DNA of 63,465 bases, counting the filler, from Folioceros fuciformis (taxonomy: Eukaryota): assembly GCA_049999805.1 (NCBI GenBank). It is 16 parts of 16 records of this genome, joined end to end, with 100 filler letters (N's around TTAATTAATTAA, not from the genome) between each part and the next. Parts side by side here need not be neighbours in the genome. Positions count along the whole stretch, not along the records: positions 37,267 to 44,126 come from JBNGIO010005698.1; 15 more parts are not named here. One strand, given 5' to 3'. Position numbers and translations under genes: made by a program. This document shows positions 21,905 to 53,393 of the stretch, piece by piece. Every line of letters begins with the position of its first letter. The stretch's first letter is position 1. The notes below the pieces were generated by a model, which saw only the letters and a list, made by a program, of their open reading frames with translations, ran no database searches and was not told where the DNA came from.

Positions 21905-23540
21905 CTCCCAAACGTCTCTGGCATCCAAGAAGGCTTTCATCCGGGCACACAAGCTCTCATAATGGGAAGCCTTGCCATCAAAACGATCCTTCTCCTTAAA
22001 TTCACTTGAATAAGCAGCTCCAAAAGAAGCACCAGTAGCAGTAGCCATGATTTGAGAAGAAGGGACAGTTGGGATTCTAGATTGTAAGGGCTGTGGATGT
22101 GAAGGACTAGCCCCTAACCGTGCCAACTCTTGAAGTGACCAAGTAATTTGAGTATGAAGTCTAAGTTGTTCCTCTACTTCAAAATCAGTGGAAGCATGTG
22201 CATCTACAGGCTCAAGCTCAACTGGTGAGTCCAACTCGCTGCTGGATGATGAGGCCGACATACACAATCTAGCAAAAGACGGGTAGGCTACCTCTAGAGA
22301 AGACTTAAAAAAAAAAACTATTCTAAAGTCCTTTTTCTAAGAAACTCAAATTGAAGTTAATTAAAAAGGAGCTTCTAAAAAAAAGTTTTTTTTTTTTAAG
22401 GAAAAAGGCCCAACGCAACAAACCGCCAACTTAAACACGACGGGGCGAACCGCCAACTTAAAAGGAAGGCCGAAACGCTAAGTTGCCGCAACTCGATGCA
22501 CACCGCGACACGGGGAAAACGGGCACAAACTCTAAGCACATGTGGAAGAAGAATCCTCACGGGCAACCTTCCAGGCACCAATCCAGATCTGTAAACCACA
22601 CGAGAGCAGGGGAGCGCCTAGCAGTGAACAGCAAAAACTAGGCCAGTGCCTGCACCCCTTCAGATCTGAAACTGCTTCAGAGGAGAGGAACATCCCGCCG
22701 CGGGCGAGATGGCTTCAACGATGGCAAATACATGGCCACCAACGGGTCTCTGGTAGAAAGATCAGGCGCCCACCCTAGCCGTGAGGAGTGTGCTGCAAAA
22801 TTTTTATCCACAAGATCTTCAACTGCTGAGAATCGCCTGCACACCTCTGCGTTTAAGTGAAGAAGAGACTCCACAATTCCATTCACCACAGTCTTCAGAT
22901 CTATGAGAGAAGCACGGGATGCATGAATCGCAACAGAAACCTTCCAGCAAAGCTATGAATCATCTAAATTGTGGACACGTGAGTCCGTAGCAAAATTTTT
23001 CCTTGTATCCCTTGTGTAATTCCTACACGAGTTCCGAAGAAAAGGTTGCCTCTGACTCTTGTGCACAATCCTATTATGATCCCTAGAGCAAGGTAGAGTG
23101 TCCCCCAAGAATCCAGGTTTCCTAATAGCCTGCCTAAATTGTGATCTCAGATTAGAAGAAGGCTGGAAGAAAAACTCTGAAGACCGATGGCCTCTACCCT
23201 TTGCCATTATAAATTCTCATGTAGGTGTTTCACGATTCATCCCTAATTAGGACATCTACAATAAAACACCACACTCTTTGATCAAGGACTAAACATAAAG
23301 TCTCACTAGCAACATGCCAGATGAGACTCATGCCAATAGCAATATGATCAAAGCATCTTCACAAAAAAAACAACCATGAGCTCTGACACCATGTTTGTAA
23401 TAGCGGAAGCTTATAGCAAAAGTTGTATATTGAATAATAATAAAACATTTGTGTATGTGTTTATATACTAGGTTAAGTCTAACCCTAAATAAAAATTAGA
23501 CTAACCTACCGAGTTAGGTTAAAACAATTCCACCTTAACA
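21905..23540 (-). mobile_element. Ty1/copia 5' end: LTR 23540-23392, PBS, ~1.1-kb leader with extra ORF, gag N-terminus
   Basis: 149-bp TG..CA LTR, PBS TGGTGTCAGAGC (23391-23380, tRNA-iMet-like), gag SEFKEKDRFDG..RMKAFLDARDVWE. Confidence 0.88.
22677..23207 (-). pseudogene. Extra ORF (ORF0) upstream of Copia gag, 177 codons with one internal TAG
   Basis: ORFs 23207-22953 and 22889-22677 are in one frame; homologous to 42206-41667. Confidence 0.75.
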
Positions 23541-28507: not shown

Positions 28508-29249
28508 CTCCCACCGGTGCGAACTACAGGTTGTCGATTACAATATTCCTCATGCATTGTTTTTCGTTTCATGCCTTCACTTCACTTACAAGCTTGCCAT
28601 GACAGTTGAGTGGACTTGACTTAATGGCCATGCCATTGGCTGGTTGGATGTGGTGGTGAGGATGGGGTGGGTCCGGTCCGCCGGCAATGGCACATGGGCT
28701 GAGTTGCTATATTTAGCTAGGTTGAGGAAGGTGGCTGGGAAGCTTCTCAAACTCATGGCTGGCCTGCCTACAAAGATGCTCGCAATGGACTAACGGTCAT
28801 GGGTAGGAGATGATAGGTTCGCTGGTGGTGGGCTATTGGGGACGGAATGCTGACAAAGAGCTGAGGCGATGAGCTGCTGGTAATGTGGTTGCGACTATGA
28901 GGTGTAGCGATGGGCTGCTGGCGGTGTGCTGTTGACGATGGGCTACTAAGGATCAGCTTGGTGGGCGCGGACGTATCGAGAGAGTGGCCTGAAGCGGGCG
29001 AGGTATGAACTAGACACGTGCAGCGTTTTTGCTGATTTCAATTGCATTCGCCGTTCTAGCTGGTTGTTTGCCCTTAGTGTCAGGAACTAGTCGAATGTTG
29101 CATTTCAGAAGTTATGGCTGTGGTAGTGGCAGCTTGCATTTGCCGGCTTTGATTTTTGGCTGGAGGTCGTTGATGTCGAAGTGTGTGAACGATGTGTACG
29201 TATGTCACGGAGAGCAGTACCCGGACCCTGGAAGTATGGTGCACAGTGG

Positions 29250-29880: not shown

Positions 29881-29976
29881 GCATTGGATATGTGCTGGCA
29901 GTTGTGTAGGGTAGATCGTGGGACGTTATAGCTGGGCGGTGTGGTGGCGTGCGTGGAAGTGCCTGGACGGTGCGGC

Positions 29977-32900
29977 ATGGCAAGTTCAAGTTCCAGCAGA
30001 GTGGGGTCGCAGGATGTGGAGTCGAACGAGAAGCCAATTCCTTTTGAGTTGCAGCAGCTTCTGGCCGAGCTGGGTGCTGGTCCCTGGCCAGCAGCTGCAG
30101 ATGCCGCATCTTCAGCCGGCACTCCGTGTCGGCCAGTGCGCACGGAGTTTCCTACCGATGTAGACAGAAGCTTTAATGCGACTGCGCGATGAGGCGCAGG
30201 GGGCAGAGTACGTGTGGGCGCTGGGAGTGTGGAAGCAGGTGTTCAGGGCCCTTGGTCGATGCACTACTCTCAAGACCGTAAATGTAGATAGAAGATTCTT
30301 CGAGGAAATGGAAATCAGCAAGGCAATTTCGAATTCGAAATTGGTGGAGGATTTCGTTGGGGGCTTACAACTCATATCCGATAAGTCCAACCTGGAGACG
30401 TTGCGCCTCTATATAACCTGGCCATCTACTGGGAGGTTTGGGTCAATTTGGAAGGGTTTGGGAGATTTTGCGCGTCGTAGTCGCAACCTGCGTGACTTGA
30501 CACTGTTTACGAGTGTTTTGGATGAGAATGTCCTCGAATTGTTGACTGGACTTGAGGCCAACCACAACTGCGACCTGGAAGTCCTACGCTTTAAATGCGA
30601 TTTCGTGATGTTTGCTGATGAAATACCTATGGGGAGATTGTGGGATCATACTGTCTACCCATTCTTGCAGCACATTGAGATTCCTTTAATCATCGGCGCA
30701 TCATCCACACTACTTGTGGTGGAAAACATGATATCGCCCTTGATCGGAAATACACGTCTGCGACGTTTGCACGTGAAATGCAGCCAGTATGCAACGGCGA
30801 TCGACGCATTGGATGGATCGTTAGACAAATTCAGACGGACGATGGACAGGATGGAAACAGCGCGTAGCTCTCACCGATGGATGATACAGAGATTGCTAGA
30901 AGCGCTTGGAAATTATGGTGAGAAGGAAAGCTTGCCAGGCAATAGATCTATCACAGATTTCAAACTGACCAACTTTACCCACAGAGTTGTGCCGTATGTA
31001 AACAAAATGTTGAGTGTGAACAAAGTGCTGGAAAAATGTTATCTCAAATGCGGTAAATGCGAAGATGCTGCCGACGGATTACAATTAGATAGGATGAAAA
31101 ATGTGAAAAACTTGAGAATACAGGGAAATTATAGCAACAGTTTCATGCATATGGTTTTCACATCTTTGGGGGAAAATGTAACACTTCAGCACCTCGACAT
31201 TGACAACTCATGCGATATGGCTGACGAGCTACTTTCAGATCTTCTGCAAAGCCTGAACGTAAACAGCGTGCTCGAAACGCTGAAAATAGAAAATAAAGGC
31301 TGGAGAAGGAGCGGAAAAATCGCACTCATACAAAATCGTATGCTTCGGAACAAGTGGCAAATAGCGTATCTACCCACTTTTCGACAGCATTTGGACTTCA
31401 AAGTGCCCGCTGCTGGTAAACTCTTACTTTGCGTCGGGAAAGAGGAGGTAAAGTGTAGTAATTCCACTCTCACCAACTACCTCTTCGCTTGTTTAATACC
31501 ATTCAGCTTCTATTTCTTCATGAGGTTGCTTTTATTATTGGATGGATAGTTTGTGACGTAGCTTGTTGTAAATTGTATGTAGGCAAAACTACAATAAGGA
31601 GAAACATGGTTTACTATCTACGACATCCTCTACAATGGAAATTCTTGCGTTCAATAAGAGTGCCCTGGATCATGACAAAAGGTATAGCTATTGAACATGT
31701 CTTCAATCACCAGAAAGATTTTCAAGTAAGCATTTGGGATCTTGCTGGCCAAGCTGAATTCCGTTTTCTCCATGATTATCTCTTTCCTAATATCCACCAA
31801 GCCTGCCTTTTTTGTTTCGTATTTAGTCCTTTTGATTATGAGATAAAAAATATTCTACCTGGTAACCAAATTAGCCAATTATTTGAACAAGNNNNNNNNN
31901 NNNNNNNNNNNNNNNNNNNNNNNNNNNNNNNNNNNNNNNNNNNNNNNNNNNNNNNNNNNNNNNNNNNNNNNNNNNNNNNNNNNNNNNNNNNTAAACAAGG
32001 AGATGTAGTAAAACCCAAGATATTAGTTGTAATTACACACGTAGACAAGTTCAAAACAAGGATGAAAGAGATTGAAATTCTTTTAAAAGAAAAGATAACT
32101 AGTCTAACACAAACTTTCTCAAATCTGGTAGATATAATTCCAAAATTGAAAATCATCAAGGCTCTATCTTTGAAATGTATGAACGAACTAACAAATGAGG
32201 TAGTGCTACATTTGAAACTTTTGTGCTCAAAATCTATACAAGTTCCCGATGTATGTGAGAAGTTGGGTGATGTCTTGATTGAGTGGGTATCTAAAAATCC
32301 TTTTGAACCTGTCATGAGTGTACAAGATTTTAACTGCTTTTGTGTAGAAAACCTCAAGGATTTGAACAAATTCCAAGTGAATGATCAAGAGAAGATAGTG
32401 ATTGCCATTATCGCTTACCTCCATGATATCGGTAAAATCATTCATTTCAAAAACAATAACCTAGTAGCAATTAATCCCCATTGGATTACTCATGACTTTC
32501 TAGGTCATTTGATGCAATTACATAGACCTGACTTACCCCCGACTAATCAAGTATATATACCACGCTTGCCTACTACTGACCAAGGATTTGTACAACAAAA
32601 AACACTTGAGAATATCCTCACTACCTTTACAAAGAATCATGCTAGACTTGAGCCCAAAGACTTGATGAATATTATGATAGAGTTGGAGTTATGCTACAAA
32701 GCATGCCTAGAAGACATGGAGATGCCAGGGTTTTTCATTCCATTGACAATCAAGCAACAAGGAGGCTTGAGTAACAAGACGTCTCTTGAATGGCAGACTA
32801 GAGATGAGAACACATGTGAATTTCTAGGAAGAAGATTACAATGTCAAGATCCTCGTACTATCCTAACTGAGGGCTTCTTCCCAAGGTTCCAGGTACATAT

Positions 32901-33579
32901 ACATATATGGTTTCCTACCTTGCAATTCATATGTGATGAATAGAACAGGATTGTGTACTAAACCATTTGACTATCTTTAGGTGGCATTGCACAATAGTCT
33001 CTTTGAAAAGAAGCATTTGGGAATGCAATCTCGCAAGCAGTACTGTTTTGGTTATAACAATATATCTATTCTTTGCAATGGACTGGATATTCTTATCGAA
33101 TATAGCGGTGGTGGGCACATTGGCTGTTATGTTGACATCCTTGTCAAGTCAGCACAACCTCTTGGGTTCGCTTATGCATTCACAAGTGAGCATATTTTTG
33201 AAAAATTGAGGGAATTTTGTGCTTCCACCAGTGGTTGTTCTGGTGTGGCATTAGAAGGGGCTTTTATCAACCCTCATTGCGTAAAGGACCTAATATCTTG
33301 CACATTGAGACAAGTGTGCACGGTGAAGAATCTAACGAAGATTCTTGAGGCCTATCAAGAGCAGGGCGAAGGGTATTTTAGTACTTGGAATATATTGGAC
33401 TATATGCATACTTGGCCTCCTATAAGTGATGTACAGAAGGCCACATTTTCCCGCCTAGATAAGTTTGTGGATGCAGATTACTTGACGGACTTAGTGCAGA
33501 GGAACGCAGAATCCTATGAAAGGCAGAAAAATCGCATTGATGAAGCTTCAGCTGAGTTTGTGTCAGCAGCTGTCACCCA
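29977..33579 (+). pseudogene. TORNADO1-like LRR-Roc-COR (ROCO) gene; exons ~29977/30176-31447, 31583-32892, 32981->33579; apparent frameshifts; 3' end lost in a gap
   Basis: RI-like LRRs, GKTT, TKGI, WDLAGQAEFRFLHDYLFP, VITHVD, YLHDIG.I..F, INPHW, FFIP, GRRLQC, GFFPRFQ|VALHN as in plant TRN1; GT-AG introns. Confidence 0.85.
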
Positions 33580-33679
33580 NNNNNNNNNNNNNNNNNNNNN
33601 NNNNNNNNNNNNNNNNNNNNNNNTTAATTAATTAANNNNNNNNNNNNNNNNNNNNNNNNNNNNNNNNNNNNNNNNNNNN

Positions 33680-37115: not shown

Positions 37116-37689
37116 CAGAAGAGAACGGCATGAGGCTAGGGCTAGAGTCAAGGGTGAGGTGGGGAGNNNNNNNNNNNNNNNNNNNNNNNNNNNNNNNNNN
37201 NNNNNNNNNNTTAATTAATTAANNNNNNNNNNNNNNNNNNNNNNNNNNNNNNNNNNNNNNNNNNNNGCTGCTGATCCCACTCCTTCCCACCTCTTCTCTA
37301 TCTTTCCCATTGCTCATGCTCCTCCCCTAGAGGCTGGCTCAGCCACCAAGGGTGAACAGTTGCAGGGGAAGACTTAGCGGGCGACCATCCAGCAAGGAAG
37401 AGGCGGCGTCCGCAGACCTTTGAAGATCAGACATCCTCTGAAGTCTCAGGATAGTCTAAGAGGTGGTAGATCCTTGTGGTGGTAGGGCCAGGAGCTCATT
37501 AGTGGCAGGTTGTGCTAGACGTCCAAATAAGTGGCTGGTGACAGCCGGCTAGGCTAGTGGCCCTATTAAAATAATATTTCTCAAGTTAGAGAGAGGTGAA
37601 GTCAGAGAGAGAGAGAGGCTCCTATAAGATCAGGTGAGCCTGAAGGAAGAAGGAGTCATTCACTTTTGGGAGTCAGTCTATCTCTTTGT

Positions 37690-37940
37690 GAGCTCTTGGA
37701 GGTCCTCTCTTCATGAGCTCTTGGAGGTCCTCTCTTCATGAGCTCTTGTGGTCTGTCCCTGCTTGGTCTAGGACCTGCAGTGTGTTGCCGGCTATGCAAC
37801 GTCTGGTAGGATCGCAAGCCGTGTGTTGCCGGCTGTACAGTGTCTGGTAGGATCGCGGGCAGCGTGTTGCCGGCTGTACAGTGTCTGGTAGGATCGCGGG
37901 CAGCGTGTTGCCGGTTGTATAGTATCTGGTAGGATCACAA
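37690..37940. repeat. Adjacent 25-bp and 40-bp tandem repeats
   Basis: GAGCTCTTGGAGGTCCTCTCTTCAT about 2.5 copies; GTGTTGCCGGCTGTACAGTGTCTGGTAGGATCGCGGGCAGC about 4 copies. Confidence 0.85.
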
Positions 37941-38751
37941 GGTGTAATGACCAGGGTGAAGGGGCTTGCCCCTAGCTCTTGATTGTAAAGGGTGTGTCTT
38001 CCTCTCGACCTGTTCACTCTTGTTCCTTGCTTGGTCAAGTGTTGTAGGCCGGCCATGTCTCATGGCGTCTGGTAAGGTTGTGGGGAGGAGATACCCAAGA
38101 GGGGAGTGTGTTCCCTTCTTCCTTTTGTTTGGGGTTAGTCTAGTGACTCTTGCCGGGTAGGAGGAGTCCGTAGGGAANNNNNNNNNNNNNNNNNNNNNNN
38201 NNNNNNNNNNNNNNNNNNNNNNNNNNNNNNNNNNNNNNNNNNNNNNNNNNNNNNNNNNNNNNNNNNNNNNNNNNNNNTTTCTGGATTTAATTCCAGAAAT
38301 TCCATTTCAACTCCGTTTCACCTTTAACAGTCTAGTGACTCTTGCCGGGTAGGAGGAGTCCGTAGGGAAGTGTAGAAGGTAGTGGTGTCGTTGCTGGTTG
38401 CTGGTAGTTGCTGGTAGTTGCTGGTGTTGGTGCTAGAGTGAGAGAGTGAGTGAGGTGTGTGAGGGAAGACGCAGATCTGAGAGGTTAGAGTCGTTGTAGT
38501 GACTGGAGTGAGTTTGTGGGCACAGAGAGAGGTGCAGCTGACCGCCGGACAGCGAGGCCTGTCCTACGCCTGATCGGAGCTGGAGGGGAGCCCTCGAATC
38601 CGGCATCGAGTCGATCAAGTCCGACCCTCCATCCACAGCAGCAAGGAACCCCATCGCTCCTTCGTGGGAACGAAACCCAATGTCTCAACGACAGTGGGAT
38701 AAGTGTGGCCACTAAAGGTGGAACCCGTTGGCGATCGGTGCCCGGGGTTTT

Positions 38752-41700
38752 ACCTCCACACCTGAACAAGATCATTGAAAGGCTCCTCCAACACATCATG
38801 TAAAGGAGTAGCATCATCCACAACAATAGGAAGATCAACATCTAACACTGCGTGTAATGTAATGTCCTTAAAGGTAACACTGCGTGCTAGCGTAAGGTTA
38901 TGACTATGAGGGTCAAACAACTTGTAAGCTTTGGATTCTTCTGAATAGCCAAGAAATATGAGAGGCTTAGCCCTATGATCTAACTTACCCCTCTTGGCTT
39001 CAGGATTGAATGCAAAGGCAAGAGACCTAAAGACCCGAAGATGAAGTAGACTAGGCTTGCGGCCCCAAAAAACCTCATAAGGTGTTCGACCAGGAAGGGC
39101 TGAGGTCACAATCCTGTTCAAAATATAAGTTTCTGCAACCACAGCCTCAACCCAAAAAGACTTGGGAAGACCTACCCAAGCCAACATGCTTCTTGTCATC
39201 CCCATCAAGGTTTGATTCTTTCTCTCAGCAACACCATTTTGTTGTTGTGTATAAGGAACTGAAAGTTGGCGAATGATGCCATAATGGTGAAAGAGATCAT
39301 CAAACCTGTGACTTGTGAATTCGTCATCATTGTTTGTGCAAAAACACGTAACTAGATGTCTTGTTTGTCTTTGAACCATAGGGATCCAAGAGGAAACCTG
39401 ATCAAAGGCTTTACTCTTCAGGTGTAAGGGAAAAGTCCAAGTGTAACGAGAAAAATCATCTACCAATGCTAGGTAATACTCAAACCCACTAAGAGATTTC
39501 ATTGGAAGTTTTCCTGCAAGATCTGCATGTATCTTCTCAAGGGTTGCTTTAGGTCTAGTAGCCATCTGATTTTTAAAAGGTAGCTCCTTCTATTTTGACA
39601 AGATGCACACACTACGGGGGACAAGGTGCTTAAAACATGAGGGTAGCTTCTCACAGTAGCAGCTTGAGTGAGACATGAAATGGAGTTTAGATTTATTGAC
39701 ATGATCTAAGCGTGCATTCCACAAATTAACCTAAAGAGGATAAGAAGCAACCAAAGCCTGAACATTGTAAGTAGAGGGAGGATCTAGCTGATAGAAGTCA
39801 TCCTCCAAGGTAGCTTTGGCAAGATACTCCCATGCTTCTCAAACTTTGTAAATATAGCAATGCTTATGCTCAAAGCTAAACCCATATTGACCAGTGGAAG
39901 TGACTGCCTTTACAAACAACAAATTTTTACTCATGGTCGGAACATACAGCACATCAAATAGCTGCAATGAAGTGCCATCTAACAAAGGTATGCGAGCCTG
40001 GCCACTATCTTCAACCTCAAGTACTCGTGAATCTCCAACATAGACTACATGAAAAGGAGTTTGATGACTGAATTTGGAGAATACCTTCTTGTTATTATAG
40101 ATATGTGAGGTGGAACCTGAATCAACAAACCACATAGAAGAATTCTCCTTGCTTGAGGTAAGACATACAGTTAGAACTGAATTATTGCTTTTATGTTGCT
40201 ATCGTCTAGAAGGTGCTCCCTTGGTACAAACATGAGCCACAGGGCAAGCCTCCTTCTTAGGTTCACCTGCCTTCTTCTTCTTGTAATCACACTCCTAGTC
40301 ACCAGGAATTTGGCACCAATTGCAAGTGCCTTGTCTTTTCACTATAGGGGTAGAAAACTAGCTTGGCTCCCCCTTTCTTAGGCTTATTATTACGCCATGG
40401 TCCTTTCCCTTTTGCAACGTAAAACACCTTCTCTCCCCGGAGGCAAGACGAAGGCCTTGACTTTTGGTGGCTCTGTTCTTTTTGCAGGAGAGCCCCAATC
40501 AAGTCATTCAACGTTATCAGAGAAGGTATACCAGCACTCACAGCCACATAAGAAGCTTGAATGGAGGTATTTTGACTTGACACGAAGTTCTGATAAGAAG
40601 CTGGTAAGCTGGATAGCAATTGTGCAACTGCATCCACTTTTGTCATTGTGCACCCAAGAGCAGCCAATTGAGATCGCAGATGGTGAAACTTCACAATATG
40701 TGGTCCCACTGGATCTCTATCACGCAGCTTAAGGCCATAGAACTCATTTCTTGCATCTACAAGTGTAAGAATGTTCTAGACCTGATATGTGTCCTTCACT
40801 TGTGTCCAAACTTTAGCAACTGTTGGTAAGGACTCCACTTTAGTTACTATTGTTTCATCCAAACCTGAAAGTAGGATAGCAAAAGCTATTTTGTTTCCCT
40901 TTTTCCACTCATCCACCATTTCTTATGTGACTCCAGGAGTAGTGGGATCAGGCTTAGGAAAAGAACCGTTAACATACTCCCACACATCTATGGCATCCAA
41001 GAAAGCCTTCATCCGGGCACGCCAACTTTCAAAATAATAAGATTTTGAATCAAAATCGTCCTTTTCTTTAAACTCTTTAGAATATGTAGCTCCTAGTGTT
41101 GTTAACACACTGTTGGCAGATGTTATGATAGGAGGAGTAGGAACCATAGGAGAAGGTCTTGACTATACAGATGGAGGAGGGAGAATAGGACTAGCTCTCA
41201 GTCGCGCTAGCTCTACCAATGATAATGTGGGTTGTGCATTTAATCTAGCTTGTTCTTCAACTTCTGAATCAATAGAGAAATATTTATCTACAAGGTCAGA
41301 CTCGTCTATAAAATCTGACTCACTACTAGAAGATGAGGCTGACCTGCACAATCAACTAGAAACGCAAAGAGAATTAAAGCTTTGCCTGTAAGTAACTCCA
41401 ACTTTTTTTTTTTTTTAAACCTAACTTAGTTTTCTATTGATGTAGAAAGAAACAAAACAAAATAGTTTTAAGGCACGAAACGCCACGCCTCTTCACAAGA
41501 AAGCACGATAACATACTCCACATGCACAGGTGGCAGCAGAATTAGAAAGTTGGTAAGAGACACCGAATTGAAACACATCTATTCAATTTTGCTAGTTATG
41601 CATGGCAGGGGCGACGCCAAATCAAGAGTCCACCGAAACGGCACCACAACACCTATGCACATCCCTTTAGATCTGAAAAGGTTGTAGGAGGCCAGCATCT

Positions 41701-42553
41701 CGCACCTGGCGAGATGGCTTCAGTGACGGCGGATACATAGCTACAACAAGATTGCGTACAGATGTGTCAACCCGCGCCTGCCCCAGCTTTGAAAATAGCA
41801 AAGAAATTGATGCTGAATTCTAAGCCAAAGAATCTTCAATCGCTGTAAGTTGTCGGCTGATCTCGACGTTTACTTTGAGCAATATGTTCACGATCGTGTG
41901 TGTTGCAGATTGTAGGTTCAACAGCAGCGCCACAGAAGAGCAAACCTCCTCAGCAACTTCCTACCACCGCTCCAAGCCACCAAAATCGTGAGTACACTTC
42001 GGTGCCTTAGAGCTGGTAGAATGGATTCGATGTAGACTGCGAGATGAACAATGATCCTTGTATAAGTAATCAAATTGTCCCCTTAAATTAGACGGTCCAC
42101 CAAGCCCATCATTAAAGTTCCTAACAGCCTGTTGTTCCTATGACTCGAGGCTGACAAGAGTCTGCGCTCGAAATAGAAGTGGCCGACGCCCTCTTCCTTT
42201 CGCCATTAAGTATTTTCATGTAGAAGTATGAATAGATTTTCATAGAAACACTAGAATAATCTAATACATCTACAGTGTGCAAGCATTGACTAGAACCTAG
42301 ACACATAAGCTCCCATCCAGCAAATTGTTGGGTGAAACTTATGTGTAAAGACATCTGACCTGTGCTTGCACATCAAAACAATACCCTTGGCTCTGATACC
42401 ATATTTGCATTGCGGAAGCGCATGTGTGCAGAAAAAATTGTAAGAAGTGTATTTAATAAAGTATTAAGCTCGTTTATATACTGAAAAAGTTAACCGTAGT
42501 TGAGCTAACCTAACCACTAACCTAGGTCAGGGTAAAACCAACTTACTCTAACA
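38752..42553 (-). mobile_element. Ty1/copia 5' half: LTR 42553-42402, PBS, leader with ORF0, gag, protease, integrase (decayed)
   Basis: PBS TGGTATCAGAGCCAAGG (42401-42385); EFKEKDDFDS..WRARMKAFLDA; WFVDSGSTSH; LEKIHADLAG; QQNGVAERKN; FLGYSEESKAYKL. Confidence 0.92.
41667..42206 (-). pseudogene. Extra ORF (ORF0) upstream of Copia gag, 180 codons with three internal TAG and no frameshift
   Basis: MAKGRGRR...LLNLQSATHTIVNILLKVNVEISRQLTAIED...VVAMYPPSLKPSRQVRDAGLL; homologous to 23207-22677. Confidence 0.78.
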
Positions 42554-42849
42554 CAAACAACATCAACTAGGCCCATCTCTTACACTTCGTGTGCAGCTCC
42601 TTGTCACTCTTTGCATTTCTAGCGTTGGCTGTACTTGCTCCCTATGTCCTCGCCCTTCCCCCCACTTCCTTCTTTGCTCACACATTACTAAGTGGTTTTG
42701 TTCTTCCTCCACATGGACAGTATGCCCATCCTGTGCTTGAGCCTCTTCTACCTCAACTGGTTCCACGTTCTCCCCCTCTATAGGCCTTTTGCTCCGACTT
42801 TTGCAACCACTTGCCACTGTACTTTTGAGCGTCATGTAACATCCTTCCC

Positions 42850-43880
42850 AACAACCTTGGACAATAGCTCACCTCCTCCTCCAGCCTCCTTTTCTTCCCA
42901 AAATTCAGGCATGCTATTCACGCCATGTTGTGTTGCCCAAACCAATTCTGCCCATGTCAGAGGCCTTTGCCACCTCCTCTTGAATCGTCGCCTCCACTAC
43001 TTCTCCCCACACGCCCAAACCGGTTGGGAGATTTCCCCTTATGCTTCCGTAGTCCTTGCTCTCGTGGTTGCCATTTGTTGGACTCATGGCAGCTTCCCTC
43101 CATTTGCCTTCATCTTCCTCAAAGTAGTAGTCACCGCAGCCTTCCATGCCTCTCTTGTCACGCCAGGTGGCCACAGTCCACGTCCCTTCTTCTTCCTCGC
43201 CTTCTCCAATTCAACAACTGCACGTACCTTCTTCCCCACTCCATGATTGCATGTACACGAGCATTGAGAAAATAAGTTATGAATTACATCCATATTATTC
43301 TCTAGCTCTAGAAACTCCCTTGCCATTGTTTCTACAAGCTCCTCTTACAAGTCCTTCGAATGCGCATACCATGGCTTTAACAAAGCCATTTGCTTGTCTA
43401 CCAACTCCTTCACCCTCTTGTGACATGCTTTTAGCACACATGGCCTCGACCCTGTTCCACTATCATTTTCCTCCTCGCTATCCATGGAGCTTGTGCAGGC
43501 CAAAAACCTTGCCATGCCAAGCTCCAATCCACCTCTACCATGTAGCTTCTACAGGACACCAAGCACATCCCCTATATGTTTTCCTGTAAGCAATGTTGTT
43601 ATCTCCCCTATGCCCGCTGCTGTGCATCTCTCAACTTCCACCATGTTGTTTCCCTCTCCTTCTTCGTCCTCTCCATCCTCACTGTTTCCTTCACTATCCT
43701 CTCCACCTGTCGTGTATGAAGTTGTATTTGTCCCTGAGCCCTCCATGTCTGCTGACACCGCATGATTGTCTATGTCTCTAGATCCCTCTCGCTCGCCTTC
43801 CTCCACATTGCTTGCACCCACCTGTGCATGGTCCCAATTTAGTGAGAAGCATTTGATTGGGCGTCTACTATGCAACACCT
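42850..43880 (-). pseudogene. Decayed single-frame ORF, possibly a CACTA (Ptta/En/Spm-type) accessory protein
   Basis: ORFs 43878-43549, 43527-43345 and 43326-43084 share one frame separated only by stops; acidic stretch, PW..H...L, WPPGVTREAW, RPLTWAEL. The family call is weak. Confidence 0.4.
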
Positions 43881-44226
43881 TTGGCCCTTGTTTACCTTCT
43901 TCAACGGGGAAGCCCTTATGTCAACCGTTTCCATCTCACCATCTTTCGTGTTGTTCACCTCCCCAGTCACTCTTGGCACGTTAGCTACCACCTCCTGATA
44001 GGAAATCTTAGAATAGATTAGAAACGCGTAGCGATTAAGCACACTGGTGCTTACAGATAGAGTGTCTTGTAGGCGTGAACGAACGGTTAGGGTTTCTAAC
44101 CGTTAGTACTTAACTAACCTAAACCTNNNNNNNNNNNNNNNNNNNNNNNNNNNNNNNNNNNNNNNNNNNNTTAATTAATTAANNNNNNNNNNNNNNNNNN
44201 NNNNNNNNNNNNNNNNNNNNNNNNNN

Positions 44227-47200
44227 AGCTGACTTTGTGAGGCGTCCGAATGGTGTGGCCGGATGTCGACAGGATGACCTGGGTGAGGCGAGGGCGTTGT
44301 CGGCTCTCAGTGCCGGAATTCTCCAGACAGTGGCTGTCCAAGAGGGAGAAGTAAGTCCGGCTCCTTGGGCGCCTGCTACTTGCCAGAAGGCACACCGTGG
44401 GTTTGACCCTAGGAAGGAGGCCGTGGATCGGCAGGTGGAATTTCCGGTTGATGGGCTAATGATGAGACATGTGGCGACGGGTAGGCAGGACGTAGGTGTT
44501 CGGGGTCACTCAGTCGCAAAGGGACGGGCTACTCAGGCAAGAGGCAGCAGGATGTCACTGGTGGGGGGGAACATATCTGGTCCCCTGGTTCCGGAGAATA
44601 TCCTGACCAAGGCCCAGGTCGTAAAGACTTAGTCTGGATGGGGTTTTCGAGCTCCCGTCCCGGCAGCTAGGCGGGGAGGAGGGGGAAGTGTCGGTGGTGC
44701 CGCCTGTTTGCGATACTATCTCTGAGGATGGGTGGTGCAGCCTAGTGAGCGCTCCAGGTGTATGGCAGCAGATGTTTTCCTTTGAGGCATCTGACAGCTA
44801 CCAACCTCTAGCTCGCGACAGTAAGAACTCTCTAGAGGAGGAATATTCGAGGTGTGGGGAGGTGAAGCACTAACCTCACTCAGCGTTGAAATGGAGGGAA
44901 GAGATACCTGAGGAGAGCGAGGCAGCTGGACTGGGAATCTAGCATGCCGACCGGTCCCAAAGCCAGGAGGCGGCTTCAGATCCCTCAATAGCGAAGATGC
45001 AGGACGGGAAGGCGAACTTGGGTGATTTACCTCTTGCCGTTGGGACCGAGGGAATGCCAATTACAGTTTCGGGTACTAATCGAGGCCCCAGCACAACCCC
45101 AGATGTGCTGACAGGAACGCCTTCTCAAACGTTTTGTGATAGGTTGGCCTCTGCGAGCTCGAGCCAGGGGTTAGGATCTGTCGTTTCCGCTCAAGCTGCT
45201 AGGGAGGAAGTGGGAAGGGAATCTTTCCAAGTTCTTTATGGGCCCCAATCTCTTGATTCAATGCCGGGGTGCCCAGTAATTCGCGACGTGTCAGCACTTG
45301 GTCATCAGTCTCCCGGGGTTGAGGCGGCCCCCGGTCCTGATGGATCCATAAAGCCAGGAGCAGAACCGGCTTTCAAGTCCACTGCCTGGAAAGTGGTAGC
45401 AGCGTCTATCTCGTCCACAAGCGAGCACTTGACCATGGAGATGGTAGTGGGGAAGAGGACTCGTGCCTCGGAAGATTTGTCTCCAGGCCATAAACGTCAG
45501 GATCAGATTACCTTGGCCAAGGCAAGGAAGGCGTTGAACAAAGCCGTGCAANNNNNNNNNNNNNNNNNNNNNNNNNNNNNNNNNNNNNNNNNNNNNNNNN
45601 NNNNNNNNNNNNNNNNNNNNNNNNNNNNNNNNNNNNNNNNNNNNNNNNNNNCTTGGCCAAGGCAAGGAAGGCGTTGAACAAAGCCGTGCAACGCATGGCT
45701 TTGGACATCACCTCCCCGGAAGGGAAAAAGCTTAAGGTGTTGGAAGGGAAAAAGCTTAAGGTGTTGGAAGGGAAAAAGCTTAAGGTGTTGGAAGGGAAAA
45801 AGCTTAAGGTGGTGGAAGGGAAAAAGCTTAAGGTGTTGGAAGGGAAAAAGCTTAAGGTGCTGGAAGGAATAAGGGGTGGTCACAAGTTTCTCTGGAAGAT
45901 TTCTGTTGGCGGGGGGAACGCCCCTTTGGTAGTCCGTAGTCACCACAATTATGGAGCAGGACGAGGATCTAGAATGGATAGAAATGACTCTGCGTGTCTC
46001 GGTAAACTCGCGGTGGTAGGTAACAGCCCCACAAAATGTGCCAGTCCCATCATGAGAGACAACTCGGTGTTCACCTCCGAGGAAGATCTTTTCTCCACTC
46101 CTTGTGCTGAGGAAGATGAGGATGCTGATACAATCTGGCATGAAGTGTAGGCTGTTTTCTCCGGGGAGAAAGGAAGCACTTCTCCGTCTAACTCCTTGGA
46201 CAAGGACTTAGTGCAGGCTAAGAGGGTGCAGGATGGGTACCCTCCTACAGGGCAGGAGGTGTATCACTTGTTAAGAGGTCAGGAACTTAGGAAGGTGGAA
46301 GGCACATCAAGGAGAAAAGGCCGACATTTTGTGATCAACCTAACGGTTATGAGAAAGGTTCAGGACCATCTTTCCTTTCTGGTCGTGATAGAAGGCGAGG
46401 GGAACAGCTGCCTCTTGTCGTTACACTACATCAGTTGCATGCAGGGAAGGACAAGATTTTTGACTTCTTGTATGCCGGAGGGGTCCCTGTAGGCAAGGAG
46501 GGCAAGGAGTTGGAATTTTTCAGTGGTATCTACTAGAAGGAGGGTCGTCTCTTTGCTGATATCCGGCTAAAGAAAGACATTGGTCCCAATTTACCACTTA
46601 ACCCAGAGTGGAGGTGGTCCTTGGATGCGCCTTGGGCGAAAGACAGGTTTAGGGGTCCACACTCGGCAGCGAGTGATGCTGAGGGGCCCTTAGCTGGTCA
46701 AGATTGGAGGCCCGCCCCTGCGAGTCGCAAGTCGGAAAGGCTTCAAAGATTGTCCCTTGAGCTAAAAGCTAAGCACCATCTGGCGCGGCATAAGTTAGTG
46801 ATTGGGGCTAGGATGCCCAAGCCGTCTGCGATACGGAATCTCTCAAGCAAGTCCCGTTAAATGAGTTTTGACACTTTAAAGAACTACAAAAGGGGGCCTC
46901 ATTTGCGGATCATTTCCTGGAATGTCAGAGGTCTGGGGGGATGGTCGAAGACGACGTCGACGTGTAGAAGACTTAAGAAGCTGCTAGAAGAGGAAGTCAC
47001 TTGGGATGTGGTGTGCTTGCAAGAGCATAAATTGTCCTTGGAGCACATCCAAAAAGTGAAGAAAATCTTTCTTCCTGGGAGAACTGAATGGGCAGCAGCT
47101 AGAGCGGAGGATACAAGAGATGGACAAATCTCTTCTCAACGAGCTTCAACAACCTGTGGAGGGGTGTCCATGACAGTTCACCCAGAGCAAACCCATAATA

Positions 47201-49499
47201 TCCTGGAATCAGGACAAGATGAGGATGAGAGGTTTGTGTGGATGGTGCTACAAACACCTCAAGGTCCGGTTGGAATATGTAATATTTACGCGCCCAATGC
47301 TGCCGTGGACAGGAGTATCCTCTGGAGTAGGCTGGGTGAACAGCTTGATGAGTAGATTCCGTGGATGCTGGCGAGCGATTTCAACTTTGTTGAACGTCGA
47401 GAGGACATACGTGGGGATAGCCCAAGTGATGTTCAGGCGGTGCCTATGTCTTGGCAGGAGCTAAGAGATACGATCTTGGCGGTGCAGGATCCATGGGTGG
47501 CCCTCCCGGCACATCGCCAACCGCAGTCCTTAATGTTCAGTATGTCTAACCAAGAACAACAGAACTTGGGAGCACGCAGGTTGGACAGGTTTTATTTACC
47601 TGCAGGGTGGCTGGCCTTTGTACAGTCGTACAGCATTCTTGCAGGTACGATTCTATCGGACCACCATCCTATTAGTCTGCACTTGAGACTCGCTCTTGAG
47701 TCGGAGCGCCCTAGGAGACATTTGCAAAATTTTCGGATGAACACCTCCTTACTGAAGAACAAAGGTGTCTTTGAAGACATCAAAAACATCTGGCAGGGAG
47801 TGGAACAGGGGGAAGAGAATGCGGCAATCTAACTGATGCGTGCTAACACTGAGGCGACTAGGTATCTGAGGAGCCGAGGGGTGCAACGAGCAAGCGATCA
47901 ACGTCAGCAAGAATGTTTTTTGAGGGAGGAATTGGGCTGGCTCCAAAGGAGCTGTGAGAGTCGGGATTTCACTGATGCGGAAGTGGCCCGTAAAACGGAG
48001 GTACAATGCGCCTTGGCCAAGCTGGAAGAAGATAGGGCTAGAGGATGGTTTAAGCGCGCTAAAATTAAATGGGTGAGGGAGGGGGATGGCCCCTCTAAAT
48101 TCTTCTTCGACTAGGTGGCCTCTAATCGGCATAGGACTCGAATCCTTGCCCTCCCAGACGCATGTGGCGTGGTGCAAGAATCGCTTGAAGGTTTAAAAAC
48201 TCTCATTACCCTCTTCTTTGTTAGCATTTTCTCTAGTGTTGGGAAGCTGGCAGGGTGGGAACGGCTTTGGTCCTCTTCATATGGTGCACTTTCGGCCAAG
48301 GTTTTTGAGGACCAACACAGGACTCTGGATATGCCGATATCTGCTGATGAGGTGTTCCAGGCCTTGAACGGGATGCCGAGGGATAAGTCCCCAGGGCACA
48401 ATGGTATCCCTCCCGAGTTCCTGCTCTGGGGATGGGATTTTATGTAGCCATTGTTCATGGAGGCGGTTAATACGTTTTTGGAGGAGGGTAGCATGGGGAG
48501 TTGGTTCAACATGGGGGTTATCTCCTTGCTCCGTAAGCAAGACGCCAGTCTATCAATCTCCAAGTGGCGCCCGATTACCCTACTCACTACCACATACAAG
48601 GTGATTGCTAAGGTGTTGGCTAATCGAATCACTCCATTTCTTGATGATTGGATTGAGAAAGAGGAGCGAGGGTTCATTCAAAATAGGTGCATCCTAGATA
48701 ACCTTCTACTCCTGAGGGAAGCTAAGGACAACACCCAGGTACAGAAGAAAGCTGCCGTCTTCATCTCCCTTGATTTTTACAAGGTGTATGATTCAGTTGA
48801 GTGGCACTTCCTGTGGCGATGCCTGCGTAGTTTCGGGTTCGGGAATAACTTCTGCAGATGGATAGCCATTCTGTGTGAAGACGCAGGCGCCAAGGTGTTT
48901 GTTAATGGATCCTTTACGGAGCGCTTTGGCATCTCTCGGTCGGTACGTCAGGGTTGCCCCCTTGCTCCATTCTTATTTATTATCGTTACTGACTTCTTTC
49001 TCAAAGCAGTCAAGCAGGACCCGCCAGTGGTGGGTGTCCAGAACCCAGATGGAACACAACTAAGGGTCTCTGCATTTGCAGATGATACGCTCCTCTTCTC
49101 CTCGGCACAGGAGGCTCCATTGAAAGCGTTGCTCCAATAGGTCAAGGTCTTTGGTGAACTCTCAGGCTGCAAGGTGAATTGGAACAAGACGCGCATGATG
49201 TGTTTTCACATGGAGGGGGAACCCCCTGAGTGTATTAACCACATCAAGCGAGTGACCCTGGGCTCTACCCACAAGTATTTGGTACTTCCTTTTCAAGAGG
49301 GGGAGGAGAATGGGAAGATTGGGAAGTATGTCTGCCTCAGGTTCATTTGCAAAGCGGCTAGTTTACAATTGTTGGAGCTCAACTTGGCAGGTAGTCTTGT
49401 GGTGATCAACCATATCCTTACAGCCTCTTTATGGTACTTTTTGTTTTTGTGGGCGCCTTCTAAGACAGAGGTGAAGCGCTTACAATAGGTGCTGACCTC
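44227..49499 (+). mobile_element. LINE (L1/Tx1-like): ORF1 remnant to 46860; ORF2 APE endonuclease + RT 46861-49499 with in-frame stops
   Basis: SWNVRGL, CLQEHK, NIYAPN, DFN, RLDRFY, SDHHPI, KSPG.NG, WRPITLL, QGCPLAP, FADD. Confidence 0.95.
45718..45867 (+). repeat. 24-bp in-frame tandem repeat x6 (EGKKLKVL) in the LINE ORF1 region
   Basis: GGAAGGGAAAAAGCTTAAGGTGTT repeated six times. Confidence 0.95.
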
Positions 49500-49909
49500 T
49501 GTTGAAAGGGATAACCCTACACTGGTCAACTAACCGGCTAGGTTAGGGTTCGGTGGATAGTACTTCGAAACTATATTTAAAGACCCTTTTTTGTTCTTTA
49601 TCAACACTTAATCATTTGGATAGTTTGTATGCTAATGCCTCTCGCCCTCCGGCTCTCGCTCCCCGCTGTCTACAAACTTAATATGGTATCAGAGTTTCTC
49701 TGGTTCTGATGTCCCTCTCTCGTTGCTAAGTATGCCTCGGCGAGGCGGTTCCGTCAATCAGGGGCGCGGATCGCATTTCTACAAGTGCGATAATCAGCGC
49801 CAATTTCCCAAGACGGTCCCGGCTGAAATTAACGCCCTGACATACTATCTGGCGGGAGGAACAGGTCACGATCCCTACTGGTCACAAGACCGGGAGCGTG
49901 CTGAATTAC
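49500..49909 (+). mobile_element. LTR (49500-49683) and PBS of an LTR retrotransposon inserted into the LINE RT
   Basis: LINE homology to the 11635-12207 copy ends at 49499; TGTTGA..TTAATA is followed by TGGTATCAGAG (49684-49694). Confidence 0.85.
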
Positions 49910-50009: not shown

Positions 50010-53000
50010 CCAGTTGGGTTCATACTAGACTAGTTCTAGTTATTAGTGAACTTAGGATAGTGTAGATTATCCCATATTGAACCTGGAAGTTGTGTAGCCC
50101 TAAATGTACTACTTAAATGGAGACCTCGGGCCTCCATAGTAAGACAGTGGTGATGTGTATTGTTTTCATGGTTGTGATCACCAATACCACCCTCTCTTCT
50201 CTCCTCTCCTCTCCTACACTTGCACGTAGATTGGAGTCGATCCTATTGACAATCTCCACCTACAAATTCCCGTGGTGAAGAGGACTCACCATCTGACATT
50301 GGATAGGTGTATGGAGGGGCATTTACAGACTGATCGGGGTCCACGGACGAGCCTACAGGATGAGAATCCAGAGCTGGCTTAGGAGATGACAACTCTCTAA
50401 AGGTAACACTACGAGAGAGTAATTTTTGAAGTTTGAGGGTCGAACAGTTTGTAAGCTTTGAACTCTTCTGAGTAACCCAAGAAAATGAGGGGTTTAGCTC
50501 TAGCATCTAACTTCCCCCTCTTGGGTTCAGGAATATAAGCAAATGGAGATCCAAATACTCTAAGATGTAGAAGACTGGGTTTCCTACCCCAAAAGGCTTC
50601 ATAAGGAGTTTGACCTAGCAGAGCTGTAGTAACCACGCGATTCAAAATATATGTGGTAGCAACAATAGCTTCAGCCCAGAAGCTTTTACGTAAGGATGAC
50701 CACGAAAGCATGCTTCGTGTCATTCCCATTAGAGTTTGGTTCTTACGCTCAGCAACACCATTCTGTTGCGGAGTGTATGGAACTGATAGCTGCCTTATGA
50801 TGCCAAACTACTGGAAAAGATGATCAAACCTGTTGCCTGTAAATTCACCTCCGTTATTTGTACGGAAGCTCTTTACTAATTTTCTTGTTTGACGTTGAAC
50901 CATTGGAATCCAGGAGGCAATGGTATCAAACACGTCACTCTTAAGCTTAAGAGGAAAAGTCCAAGTGTAGCATGAAAAATCATCAGTCAACGTGAGATAA
51001 TATTCAGCACCGCCCAGAGATTTCACACGGAGTTTACCAGCTATGTCTGCATGAATTAACTCCAAGACAGATTTGGCTCTGGTTGCTATTTTATTCCTGA
51101 ATGGTAACTCTTTTTGCTTGGATAATATGCAGGAGCGACATGCCTCAAGATGCTTAAAGCAGGGAGGAAGCTGTTCTCTGTAACAGTTAGACAAGGACAT
51201 GAAGTCTAACTTAGACCTGTTAACATGTCCTAAACGCGCATGCCAAAGACTTGCTTGTAAATTACTGGCAGCCACAAGAGCCCTCACTTTGGAGTGATGA
51301 ATTGTTATTAATTGATACAAATCATTGATTAGTACAGCCTTAGCAACAAAGACTTCTGGAAGAGATTGCTGGTAGATATAACACTTCTTGTTCTCAAACT
51401 TAAAGCCATACTTCTTACTCTGAACAAGAGCTTTGATGGATAGAAGATTCTTACTCATCTTAGGGACAAAAAGTACATCATCCCAATGCAAGACTGATCC
51501 ACCAGAAAGAGGTATGTTAACTGAACGAGTTCCTTTAACCTTCACACCACGAGCATCACCTACATAAACTAGTTGAGGTGATTGCTGTTTGTGTAGGGTG
51601 GAGAAAAGTTCTCGGTTGTTGCAGACATGAGTAGTTGCGCCAGAGTCCATGAACCAAGAGGGAGACTGATCCTTATAAGAGGTCAGGCAGACTGTAAGTA
51701 CAGTACTCCCACTCTTATGCTGAGATCCAGAGGTCTTATTCTCCTTAGATGTAATGTGAGCTTCAGATCTAGGCTCCTTCTTAGGCTCACCTGCCTTCTT
51801 TTTCTTGCAGTCACGTTCCCAGTGACCGGGAATTCGTACCACTACGTTTGGTCGGAAAGGTTGAAGAGGAGGTACAAGATGTGGGGGTCTTCTTGCCCTT
51901 GTCTTTTACTTTCCACTGTCCTTTTCCTTTGGAGGCAAACAGGACTTTCTCCCCTCGCAGACGAGGAGCTGAATGGGTACGTAGGTGGCTTTGTTCTTCT
52001 TGCAAGAGAGCTCCTATGATTTCATTCAGATTTAATGATGACGGTTGGCCACTTGCTACAGCTTATATGCGTCGCGCAAGGTGGCATTCTGACTGGAGAT
52101 AAATGTTTGATAGGACGAAGGAAGGCTGGCTAAGAGTTGAGCAGTCATCTCCACCTCAGTGATCTTGGTACCTAACACGGCAAGCTGTGCCCGTAGGTGC
52201 CTCAACTTAGTGATATGAGCTCCAACCGGTTCCCCTTCCTTCAACCTAAGACTGTGAAAATTATTACGAGCTTTGATCATCGTACAAACATTTTGCACCT
52301 GGTAAGTATCAGACAGCTTCAGCTATTTCCAAGGTGTCCACTTCAGTTATAGTCGACTCATCCAGTCCAAATAATAGAATAGCAAAAGCTTCTCTGTTGC
52401 CTTTCTTCCACTTTGCTATCTCATCAGCTGTTGGTTGTGGTATTGTTGTGCTAGGTACCTTCAATGGATTGGGTATGGATCCATCCACATACTCCCACAC
52501 GTCCCTGGCATCCAGGTTAGCTTTCATTCTCGCCTTCCAACTCTCAAACCTGATGGGTCTCCCGTCAAATCTATCTTTCTCCTTAAACTCACATGAATAA
52601 GGGGATCCAACAGATGTAGATGGGGAAGCAACTGGAATGGATGCCATGACGGGCTGAACATGTACTGGATTAACAAGAGTGACAGGAAGTGATGGATCAG
52701 AGTACAGCAAAGAAAATTGGTCCAAATCTGAATCACTATCTGAGTCTACCTGCAACATAAGCTACACACTCATAAGGGTACAACTAGCCTAACGAGATAG
52801 GTAAAGGTATGAACCGGTACATTAAGAAAAACGTTTCATGAATTCTAGTTTTTAGTTCTTAAGGAAAGACCCTAAAACTATGTCATGTGAATTTTTTAAC
52901 TGAATAACGGTTCACATTTCAATGGCAGGGGACCAAGAATGCAAGAGACGTGACTCCAGCAACGAAGAGGCAAACAGCAATCGGATCCCGACACATGGAA

Positions 53001-53393
53001 GCAACAGCAAAAGGTACAACTCAAGAATGTGCTTGTTGTGCGCTCCCTTCTCACCACGCTAGATCCCAAATGCTGTAATGCACCGCTTCAAATCTGGGTA
53101 GTTGTTGCACCCTGATGATCCCCAACACTTGATTCCTCCCTCATGGGAACAAGTGATTTCAGATACAGGGCTGCAACCGGCTGAACAGCAGAGATTGAAG
53201 ATTCTCTAGAAACCTTGAGACTAGCAATGTCATTGGCAAGTAGACTGACTTCTGATTGGAGAGATTCGACATCAGAAGAAATCTGTTCAAGTTTTGGTTG
53301 AGTCTGAACAAGCAACCGAGTCATCAGGGCTTCAATGTTGTCCAACTTGGAAGAGAATCTCTTATCTGCAAAAGAACGTCTTGTAGAGTCCAA
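50010..53393 (-). mobile_element. Ty1/copia: leader ORF, gag, protease, integrase, then PPT and LTR with no RT/RNase H
   Basis: CEFKEKDRFDG, GHWERDC, WFMDSGATTH, LWHARLGH, LELIHADIAG, FRTNNGGEF; AGGTGGAGAT-TGTCA at 50261-50247 resembles a PPT plus LTR start. Confidence 0.88.

Follow-up and report, generated by a model that had tools for sequence, protein, structure and literature searches.

A decayed open reading frame ahead of gag in a Ty1/copia element of Folioceros fuciformis, very probably the remnant of a lineage-wide accessory gene

A stretch of 63,465 nucleotides from the Folioceros fuciformis assembly GCA_049999805.1 (hereafter the window) carries, at positions 41667..42206, a frame of 180 codons that a first-pass annotation had named ORF0 copy B (ORF, open reading frame) and that is interrupted by three TAG codons. 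The questions raised by this locus are whether such a frame, placed ahead of the gag gene of a retrotransposon, is a gene at all, and how Gag-Pol could be produced from behind it, given that copia elements normally have Gag-Pol as the first ORF translated from their genomic RNA. It was found that ORF0 is, with high confidence, a genuine accessory gene present throughout one lineage and held under moderate purifying selection, copy B being its pseudogene. The best explanation of the locus as a whole, to which a probability of roughly 0.6 is attached, is that it is a decayed copy of an accessory gene of one Ty1/copia clade, built as short long terminal repeat (LTR), primer-binding site (PBS), leader, ORF0, spacer, gag and pol, whose product would act in trans and whose Gag-Pol would come from a second transcript.

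Small scaffolds, linked end to end by N44-TTAATTAATTAA-N44 (e.g. at 21805-21904), make up the window; those adjacent across a link are not real neighbours, and the scaffold of the element under study, element B, spans 37267-44126. The parts of element B and of the sibling copies are the following:

42402..42553, minus strand: 5' LTR of element B, about 152 bp, starting with TGT, homologous in layout to the LTR of copy A
Inside that LTR, minus strand: telo-box-like AACCTAA/TTAGGTT, and TATATAAA at 42480-42473
42390..42401, minus strand: PBS TGGTATCAGAGC of element B, which we take from its motif to be of the tRNA-iMet type
42207..42389, minus strand: leader of element B, AT-rich, about 185 nt, with several upstream ATGs
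41667..42206, minus strand: ORF0 copy B, 179 codons and a terminal TAA; codons 23, 82 and 129 are TAG
41346..41666, minus strand: ORF0-gag spacer of element B, non-coding, about 320 nt, its 5' half GC-richer and its 3' half AT-rich
38858..41345, minus strand: gag, protease and integrase of element B (Pfam, tblastn)
22677..23207, minus strand: ORF0 copy A, with one TAG
23392-23540, 23380-23391 and from 22261 to the scaffold end, minus strand: LTR, PBS and gag of copy A
53088..53393, minus strand: 3' half of ORF0 copy C, cut by the scaffold end, with a gag start at 52758 and a donor-like motif at 52804-52813
49732..49908, plus strand: first 59 codons of ORF0 copy E, cut by the scaffold end, with a PBS at 49684, 48 nt upstream

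ORF0 copy B is read on the minus strand from 42206 to 41667 as 179 codons beginning with ATG and a closing TAA, and its product begins with the Arg/Gly-rich MAKGRGRRP, continues into a predicted long amphipathic helix and has a C-terminal VAMYPPSL.P.R motif, while the plus-strand translation across the same interval was full of stops and its frame closed. When copy B was compared with copy A (23207-22677), the two matched at both ends in a single frame (tblastn, 35% identity over 184 columns, E 8e-16), with a global score of 167.5 versus -30±12, and at most 11.5, in 500 shuffles. The frame of 180 codons, its preservation relative to copy A and the three internal TAG codons, all proposed in the first-pass annotation, were thus borne out, the strand being the minus one.

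The exclusively TAG lesions, noted earlier alongside the case for coding selection, do not bear that case out. Three TAG among three stops are within chance, with a probability of 0.14 at the share observed in the family (36/69) and of 0.36 at that of gag-integrase in element B (5/7). In that gag-integrase region, 7 stops were counted in 759 aligned codons, five of them TAG and with TGA and TAA also represented, and the stop density of ORF0 was no different (p=0.41). Among 81 family sequences, the 69 internal ORF0 stops comprised 36 TAG, 18 TGA and 15 TAA, and C-to-T difference rates between close copies were 0.076 in CG, 0.065 in CHG and 0.019 in CHH contexts. Because gag-integrase is hit alike and C-to-T changes are in excess in CG and CHG, the TAG-only lesions of copy B are ordinary decay by methylcytosine deamination; copy B is a pseudogene, and selection acted on the lineage. 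The three TAG codons could also be explained if TAG were read through or recoded in the element or its host, leaving copy B functional, but gag-integrase of the same element carries all three kinds of stop and RT (reverse transcriptase) is missing, the family-wide stops fit CG/CHG deamination, and the eRF1 gene of the host itself terminates with TAG. Readthrough or an alternative code was consequently rejected, being refuted as far as can be judged from DNA, and it is given next to no chance. Element B is indeed a dead, 3'-truncated Ty1/copia copy, since in addition to those seven stops no RT, RNase H or 3' LTR was found in its scaffold, where no target-site duplication was found either. Its gag, which shows an acidic Ser-rich N-terminal extension, Retrotran_gag_2 and a zinc knuckle, is devoid of a start codon at the position where gag starts in sibling copies.

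The case for a gene comes from the relatives of copy B. The sample surveyed consisted of 30 loci returned by a gag query (150 scored matches out of 1313 candidates), 80 fetched stretches and the loci obtained by ORF0 searches, in which 12 matches from the same genome were obtained with copy B as query and 14 with copy A, including a single fully open one. In 23 of the 61 PBS-to-gag regions with a PBS and free of N, a sense ATG-initiated ORF of at least 150 codons was present, versus none of 61 in antisense and a mean of 59 codons in shuffles. Such an ORF was found in only 1/26 copies of a control copia family from the same genome. A sense tblastn match to the ORF0s of the set was obtained in 87/111 elements with more than 600 nt upstream, a count that includes the self-hits of 25 queries, and an intact ORF0 was present in 18/38 subfamilies. 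The five other frames of intact ORF0s all carry stops, and a purine occupies position -3 in 22 of 23 intact starts. Additionally, ORF0 is open in elements whose gag is only 38-45% identical to the query and which have an uninterrupted polyprotein of about 1480 amino acids, and it begins there with the same signature, M-[A/P/T/S]-R-[R/G], found across the members and itself used for choosing the ORF0 start codon. The start context CTACATGA..AAT...AATGGC, reported earlier as conserved, is in fact common to copies A and B and does not extend to the family, where CTACATG was found within 40 nt upstream in 0/23 intact relatives; it is local to the A/B subfamily.

The carriers of ORF0 belong to a single group. 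The uninterrupted polyproteins of the relatives contain integrase, RT and RNase H in this order, with PF07727 carried by the RT-region matches, and the arrangement as a whole is that of Ty1/copia: an LTR followed by a tRNA-Met PBS, gag and then integrase in element B, and integrase-RT-RNase H in the relatives. Seven RTs of these elements and one database protein formed one clade (support 98/96) that excluded the named rows included for comparison, from angiosperms, algae and fungi, and the best RT-RNase H match among the matches listed was 53% identical.

Purifying selection was assessed by the dN/dS ratio (nonsynonymous over synonymous divergence, ω). In protein-guided pairs, the median ω was 0.33-0.50 for ORF0 and 0.08-0.38 for gag; copy B against seven relatives gave 0.25-0.52, near saturation, and ω was below 1 in 163/163 distant ORF0 pairs, a count biased by the protein guidance. 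Because alignments of this kind favour the frame used, the comparison was repeated with 24 disjoint pairs aligned as DNA without regard to frame, a 25th having been dropped as its frame was not located. Median ω values were then 0.48 for the ORF0 frame, 0.67 and 0.80 for the two remaining sense frames, 0.59-0.80 for the antisense frames, with 0.59 in the mirror frame, and 0.70 for the spacer. The ORF0 frame had the lower ω in 18/24 pairs (Wilcoxon p=0.003), pairs whose choice by ORF0-frame similarity favours that frame. ORF0 is accordingly under moderate purifying selection, weak beside that of gag (ω about 0.4-0.5 versus 0.1-0.2 at similar divergence), and the coding selection originally claimed stands through the family-wide openness of the frame and dN/dS, not through the arguments first given for it.

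The lengths of insertions and deletions, previously suggested as a check, were less informative. Multiples of three made up 10/24 pairwise indels in ORF0 (p=0.25 versus 1/3), 9/38 in the spacer and 1/8 in gag, which is certainly coding and nevertheless reaches only this share because post-insertion decay dominates. Among indels common to several copies, the corresponding numbers were 7/10 in ORF0 versus 2/15 in leader plus spacer, with 8 of those 10 coming from one heterogeneous group. ORF0 could alternatively be non-functional cargo, a captured or overprinted frame transported passively and open through composition or recent ancestry. Its very fast divergence, an ω only moderately under the controls, an indel test short of significance and the lack of any homolog of one query among 5.8 billion proteins are in keeping with this. 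On the other hand, frame and start signature are kept in elements with gag 38-45% identical to the query, the other five frames are closed, and ω, besides the 163 biased pairs, lies below the controls in frame-agnostic alignments; the passive reading is already largely refuted and very improbable. As a separate observation, synonymous divergence (dS) between element B and locus L006 was 0.26 in gag and 1.6 in ORF0, and between B and L002 0.71 and 1.76; subfamilies may exchange ORF0 by recombination, or alignment may inflate dS.

What the gene encodes was approached through the anatomy of its product. ORF0 proteins have about 150-215 amino acids and are often less than 25% identical (16-44% to the first alignment row). 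Their N-terminal half is basic, with about 9-19% Arg and a net charge of +2 to +12 in 19/19 representatives, the C-terminal half shows heptad periodicity, and a P(V)AA(M/L)YL.SL.P.R motif is found in part of the clade. An AlphaFold model comprised a single helix at residues 79-147 (pLDDT >90) between disordered arms, the N-terminal half being disordered. No transmembrane segment was predicted in any of the 19 representatives (maximal 19-residue hydropathy 0.67-1.59), which makes a role as envelope protein unlikely. This anatomy suggests an oligomerising, nucleic-acid-binding and probably nuclear accessory factor: with about even odds, the 17-24 kDa product would enter the nucleus and bind nucleic acid through an Arg-rich disordered half, would oligomerise through an amphipathic helix of about 70 residues, and would act in trans on transcription of the element, RNA export or silencing.

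Homology searches returned one full-length relative, of 172 amino acids, in a Logan assembly (profile search of 1.84 billion representatives; E 1.2e-5; 38% identity to one member). A profile match designated P0001 (4261 amino acids, 19 stretches) was set aside as a generic coiled-coil match. Pfam was blank for copies A and B, and for 16 ORF0 members it gave scattered weak matches, with no family in more than one of the 16 at E<=0.1 and none at the curated cut-off in the table shown. Among 5.8 billion proteins there was no match to one intact ORF0 and none to the gag region at E<=1e-10. The Atlas comparison gave scores of at most 0.85 or none, a Borna P24 row at 0.82 being a lead only; Foldseek yielded no match at E<=0.001 in BFVD or PDB, and no relative was found in viral or metagenome contigs.

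A gene in this position leaves the production of Gag-Pol to be explained. No frame relation between ORF0 and gag is fixed and no stop-start overlap occurs; the spacer mostly measures 215-420 nt to the first gag ATG and contains 1-9 ATGs, and out-of-frame ATGs inside ORF0 are slightly fewer than expected (86 versus 108). Leaky scanning to gag along an AUG-free path was rejected, as neither ORF0 nor the spacer is AUG-free. Scanning to gag is thus implausible, and since ORF0 and many AUGs would block it, Gag-Pol presumably needs another route. Under the best explanation stated above, the LTR-started genomic RNA would have ORF0 first, and a TATA-less second promoter in the spacer, which has a telo-box-like motif in common with the LTR, would drive Gag-Pol. 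That motif was detected in 34/60 LTRs and 34/64 spacers, versus 2/64 leaders, 1/64 ORF0s and 0/64 gag regions, and a TATA motif in 36/60 LTRs and 1/64 spacers. In plants, telo-boxes mark 5' regions as well as cryptic promoters of Pol II, according to the available part of PMC3022908. A spacer promoter of this kind appears to be the most likely single route to Gag-Pol, if at somewhat less than even odds, and sense splicing, like reinitiation or internal entry, is an unlikely route when taken singly.

The leaders that precede ORF0 differ in length. In one sub-clade (L115, L116, L118, L123; window 49684-49731) they measure only 40-51 nt and lack any ATG downstream of the PBS, while most other copies have leaders of 140-300 nt with several ATGs. 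Close behind the PBS, GCTCTGA, which is complementary to the PBS, was seen in L025, L040, L042, L050, L096 and L115, where a PBS-masking hairpin is possible.

The spacer contains a second signal. Shortly upstream of the first gag ATG lies ACTTACC, which in antisense is the U1-complementary donor G/GTAAGT (splice point at the slash). A match of at least 7/9 to the consensus CAG/GTAAGT was found in antisense in 25/38 subfamilies, versus 5 in sense and 5.6 (maximum 11) in shuffles, and in only 2/26 copies of the control family. Within subfamilies the donor hexamer differed at 4/90 positions versus 390/2204 in the rest of the spacer (p=3e-4), and the variants GTAAG/GTATG/GTACG fit a donor profile and not a branch-point profile. 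Many copies have CTAAC and TGCAG 70-140 nt beyond this motif; under loose rules, the full donor-branch-acceptor pattern was present in antisense in 47/79 copies, versus 18 in sense and 16.6 in shuffles, and under strict rules in 9/38 subfamilies (shuffle mean 2.0, maximum 8). In element B the candidate parts are:

41388..41529, plus strand: putative antisense intron, with donor-like GTAAGT at 41388-41393
41417-41425, plus strand: putative branch/telo-box-like AAACCTAAC, branch at 41420
41445 and 41529, plus strand: ends of the acceptor candidates

These motifs slightly favour the view that a non-coding antisense RNA, which would start inside gag and run over ORF0, has its first intron in the spacer; an intron on that strand can persist because splicing never removes it from the genomic RNA. 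Alternatively, the telo-box-like motif of the spacer may be nothing more than the branch point of that antisense intron. Antisense coding over ORF0 was discarded, with 2-15 stops per antisense frame in 23 intact copies, and no ORF spanning the candidate antisense junctions was conserved in 44 copies. No intramolecular pairing partner or hairpin for the CTTACC motif occurred at a consistent place in 34 copies, and no precise loss of the antisense intron was seen in sibling copies among nine spacer gaps of at least 50 nt, three of which are assembly N runs. One RNA run gave no reads over ORF0, spacer and gag of copy A, together with GT..AG joints over a neighbouring host gene, and weighs neither way.

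The same motif can be read on the opposite strand. Retroviral Rev exports unspliced RNA, and ORF0 could by analogy lie inside a sense intron and encode a Rev-like exporter, the unspliced RNA giving ORF0 and a spliced subgenomic RNA giving Gag-Pol, with CTTAC as the sense branch point. CTTAC does fit yUnAy and lies 11-68 nt ahead of a gag-type ATG in most scored copies, a polypyrimidine tract plus YAG is present in sense in 29/38 subfamilies versus 21.9 in shuffles, and ORF0 possesses an Arg-rich region and a leucine-rich helix. However, the motif varies where a branch point is kept (CATAC, CGTAC) and is fixed where the reverse donor is fixed, one subfamily has its ATG 11 nt further on with no AG between, no donor word is enriched in leaders, and in the leaders of 40-51 nt nothing outside the PBS clearly resembles a donor. 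As far as PMC5580714 and PMC7264820 are available, they discuss splicing in copia, known from around protease (PMC5580714), and Rev-like functions of extra ORFs. This sense-intron scheme is considered improbable, with perhaps one chance in a handful.

Less probable still is a single bicistronic genomic RNA from which Gag-Pol would be translated after ribosomes reinitiate, or enter internally, in the spacer, the spacer motifs being RNA elements, possibly with ORF0 acting like the caulimovirus TAV, a reinitiation transactivator. The fairly constant spacer length, the conserved motifs and the slight deficit of out-of-frame ATGs in ORF0 are compatible with such an RNA, but ORF0 and the ATG-containing spacers are not AUG-free, ORF0 and gag have no fixed frame relation or stop-start overlap, and the conserved motif lacks a consistent pairing partner or hairpin.

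The explanation by a trans-acting accessory gene and a second transcript remains the preferred one, although a number of results weigh against it. With respect to the gene, the copies counted are related, not independent; selection on ORF0 is weak, the mirror antisense frame comes closest to it, the pairs were chosen in a way that favours its frame, and the pairwise indels did not depart significantly from one third. The Pfam, Atlas and Foldseek searches identified no known family or fold. With respect to expression, long leaders are rich in ATGs (61 versus 39 in shuffles, 11 leaders), which means that ORF0 translation is not straightforward; TATA motifs are scarce in spacers, the strict antisense pattern falls to nine subfamilies with a shuffle maximum of eight, and a polypyrimidine tract plus YAG is somewhat frequent in sense as well. 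A fuller programme of three transcripts, making this a 'complex' copia clade, is doubtful on the motifs at hand: the LTR would give the ORF0 regulator, the telo-box promoter of the spacer Gag-Pol, and a spliced antisense RNA from gag would tune or silence ORF0. Complex retroviruses have an internal promoter, a spliced antisense RNA and an Arg-rich/helical trans-regulator, and, if the programme were true, it would be a plant copia parallel to them, in which Gag-Pol must package a genomic RNA whose first ORF is not its own.

Further observations concern the elements and the remainder of the window. In the window (41345-41075) and in L002 and L003, the acidic Ser-rich extension of gag is followed, ahead of EFKEKDRF, by another conserved Met in the same frame; a frameshift between the two Met codons is common to L002 and L003, and the second Met may be the true start in some subfamilies. 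A CAGATCTGAA…GGTGCA-like DNA motif (41663-41675 and equivalents) lies at or just past the ORF0 stop in several subfamilies, in any frame. At the 3' end of L117 (G000:C6401), whose gag begins with a long poly-Gly run, LTR, PBS and the same leader appear again, as in tandem elements with a common LTR. Another element of the same gag clade, at about 9650-11590 (plus strand), has a long spacer and no detectable ORF0. Elsewhere, the window contains an intronless eRF1 open frame at 4188-5516 (plus strand; Pfam eRF1_1/2/3), which ends with TAG, a Roc-COR (ROCO) gene at about 28900-33600 (plus strand) covered by RNA contigs with GT..AG joints and many paralogous reads, and an LRRNT_2 gene (Pfam). The Roc-COR and LRRNT_2 genes, like the CG/CHG pattern of decay, are in keeping with a plant host. 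A repeat of 1.0-1.8 kb with 97% identity occupies 12744-13787, 54460-56260 and 56507-58310, one copy breaking an LRR-receptor-like frame (LRR, leucine-rich repeat; 13220-14338), and decayed LINE-like endonuclease and reverse-transcriptase frames, recognised by translation only, lie at 46861-49488 (plus strand).

Extra ORFs at the 5' side are known in gypsy lineages such as Ogre and Retrosat2 and are rare in the copia lineages surveyed. In the available part of PMC3485330, the rice Ty3/gypsy elements Retrosat2, FRetro3, RIRE3 and RIRE8 are described with an ORF0 of unknown function between the 5' LTR and gag-pol; that of the Retrosat2 type resembles the copia ORF0 in being an extra, lineage-restricted sense ORF 5' of gag-pol that evolves far faster than the polyprotein with Ka<Ks. 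Retrosat2 is, however, a gypsy element with LTRs of more than 3 kb, whereas the elements studied here have copia order and domains and LTRs of about 150 bp; no family match links the two ORF0s, which are compared by description, and that part of the paper describes no antisense splice signal (PMC3485330). Likewise, a forward 5' extra ORF is described in Medicago Ogre (accessible text of PMC2533021), and in the portion of the REXdb survey at hand the eORF-5'F shares in gypsy lineages were 21% for Ogre, 33% for Tekay and 23% for TatII (PMC6317226). As with the copia ORF0, these are forward ORFs upstream of gag with heterogeneous proteins, a few Ogre ones having SMC-type matches; unlike it, they are all gypsy (PMC6317226, same portion). 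Within the same portion, only Bianca and Ikeros among 16 copia lineages had 5'-eORFs, in small shares (rows 5/2 and 4/6%, by approximate column reading), and only ORFs of at least 250 codons were considered; because of this threshold, an ORF0 of 150-215 codons would be missed (PMC6317226).

The usual copia accessory ORF is the env-like eORF-3'F of SIRE (Sirevirus), 3' of pol, as far as PMC6317226 and PMC7264820 are available. It is similarly lineage-wide and fast-evolving, but lies downstream of pol and is in some cases env-like with transmembrane segments, whereas ORF0 lies upstream of gag and is soluble and basic. Yeast Ty1, likewise copia-type, has transcripts starting within the element (Ty1i/p22) and long antisense RNAs that cover its 5' part, to judge from the accessible parts of PMC3681743, PMC8458377 and PMC4599808; it differs in being without an ORF upstream of gag, and in the ORF0 clade internal and antisense transcripts are deduced from motifs only. 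VANC and Athila-domain proteins, in the part of PMC13547354 available, are coiled-coil accessory proteins of transposable elements, predicted to form oligomers; they share with ORF0, which to judge from its anatomy may oligomerise, a helical character and a dN/dS above that of the core proteins, with no sequence or fold match between them. The likeness of ORF0 to retroviral Rev is limited to composition and helix. The function of extra ORFs is left open in a review that suggests retroviral accessory roles (PMC7264820).

In the literature covered, largely without subscription papers, no copia clade with a conserved ORF of fewer than 250 codons upstream of gag, nor an antisense donor there, was found. 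A copia clade in which most surveyed members have a conserved gene of 150-215 codons ahead of gag would need an unusual way of producing Gag-Pol, and, as ORF0 is too short for the main plant survey, which began at 250 codons, similar genes elsewhere may have been missed. The dozens of divergent natural ORF0 variants in such a clade provide material on what retrotransposon accessory ORFs do.

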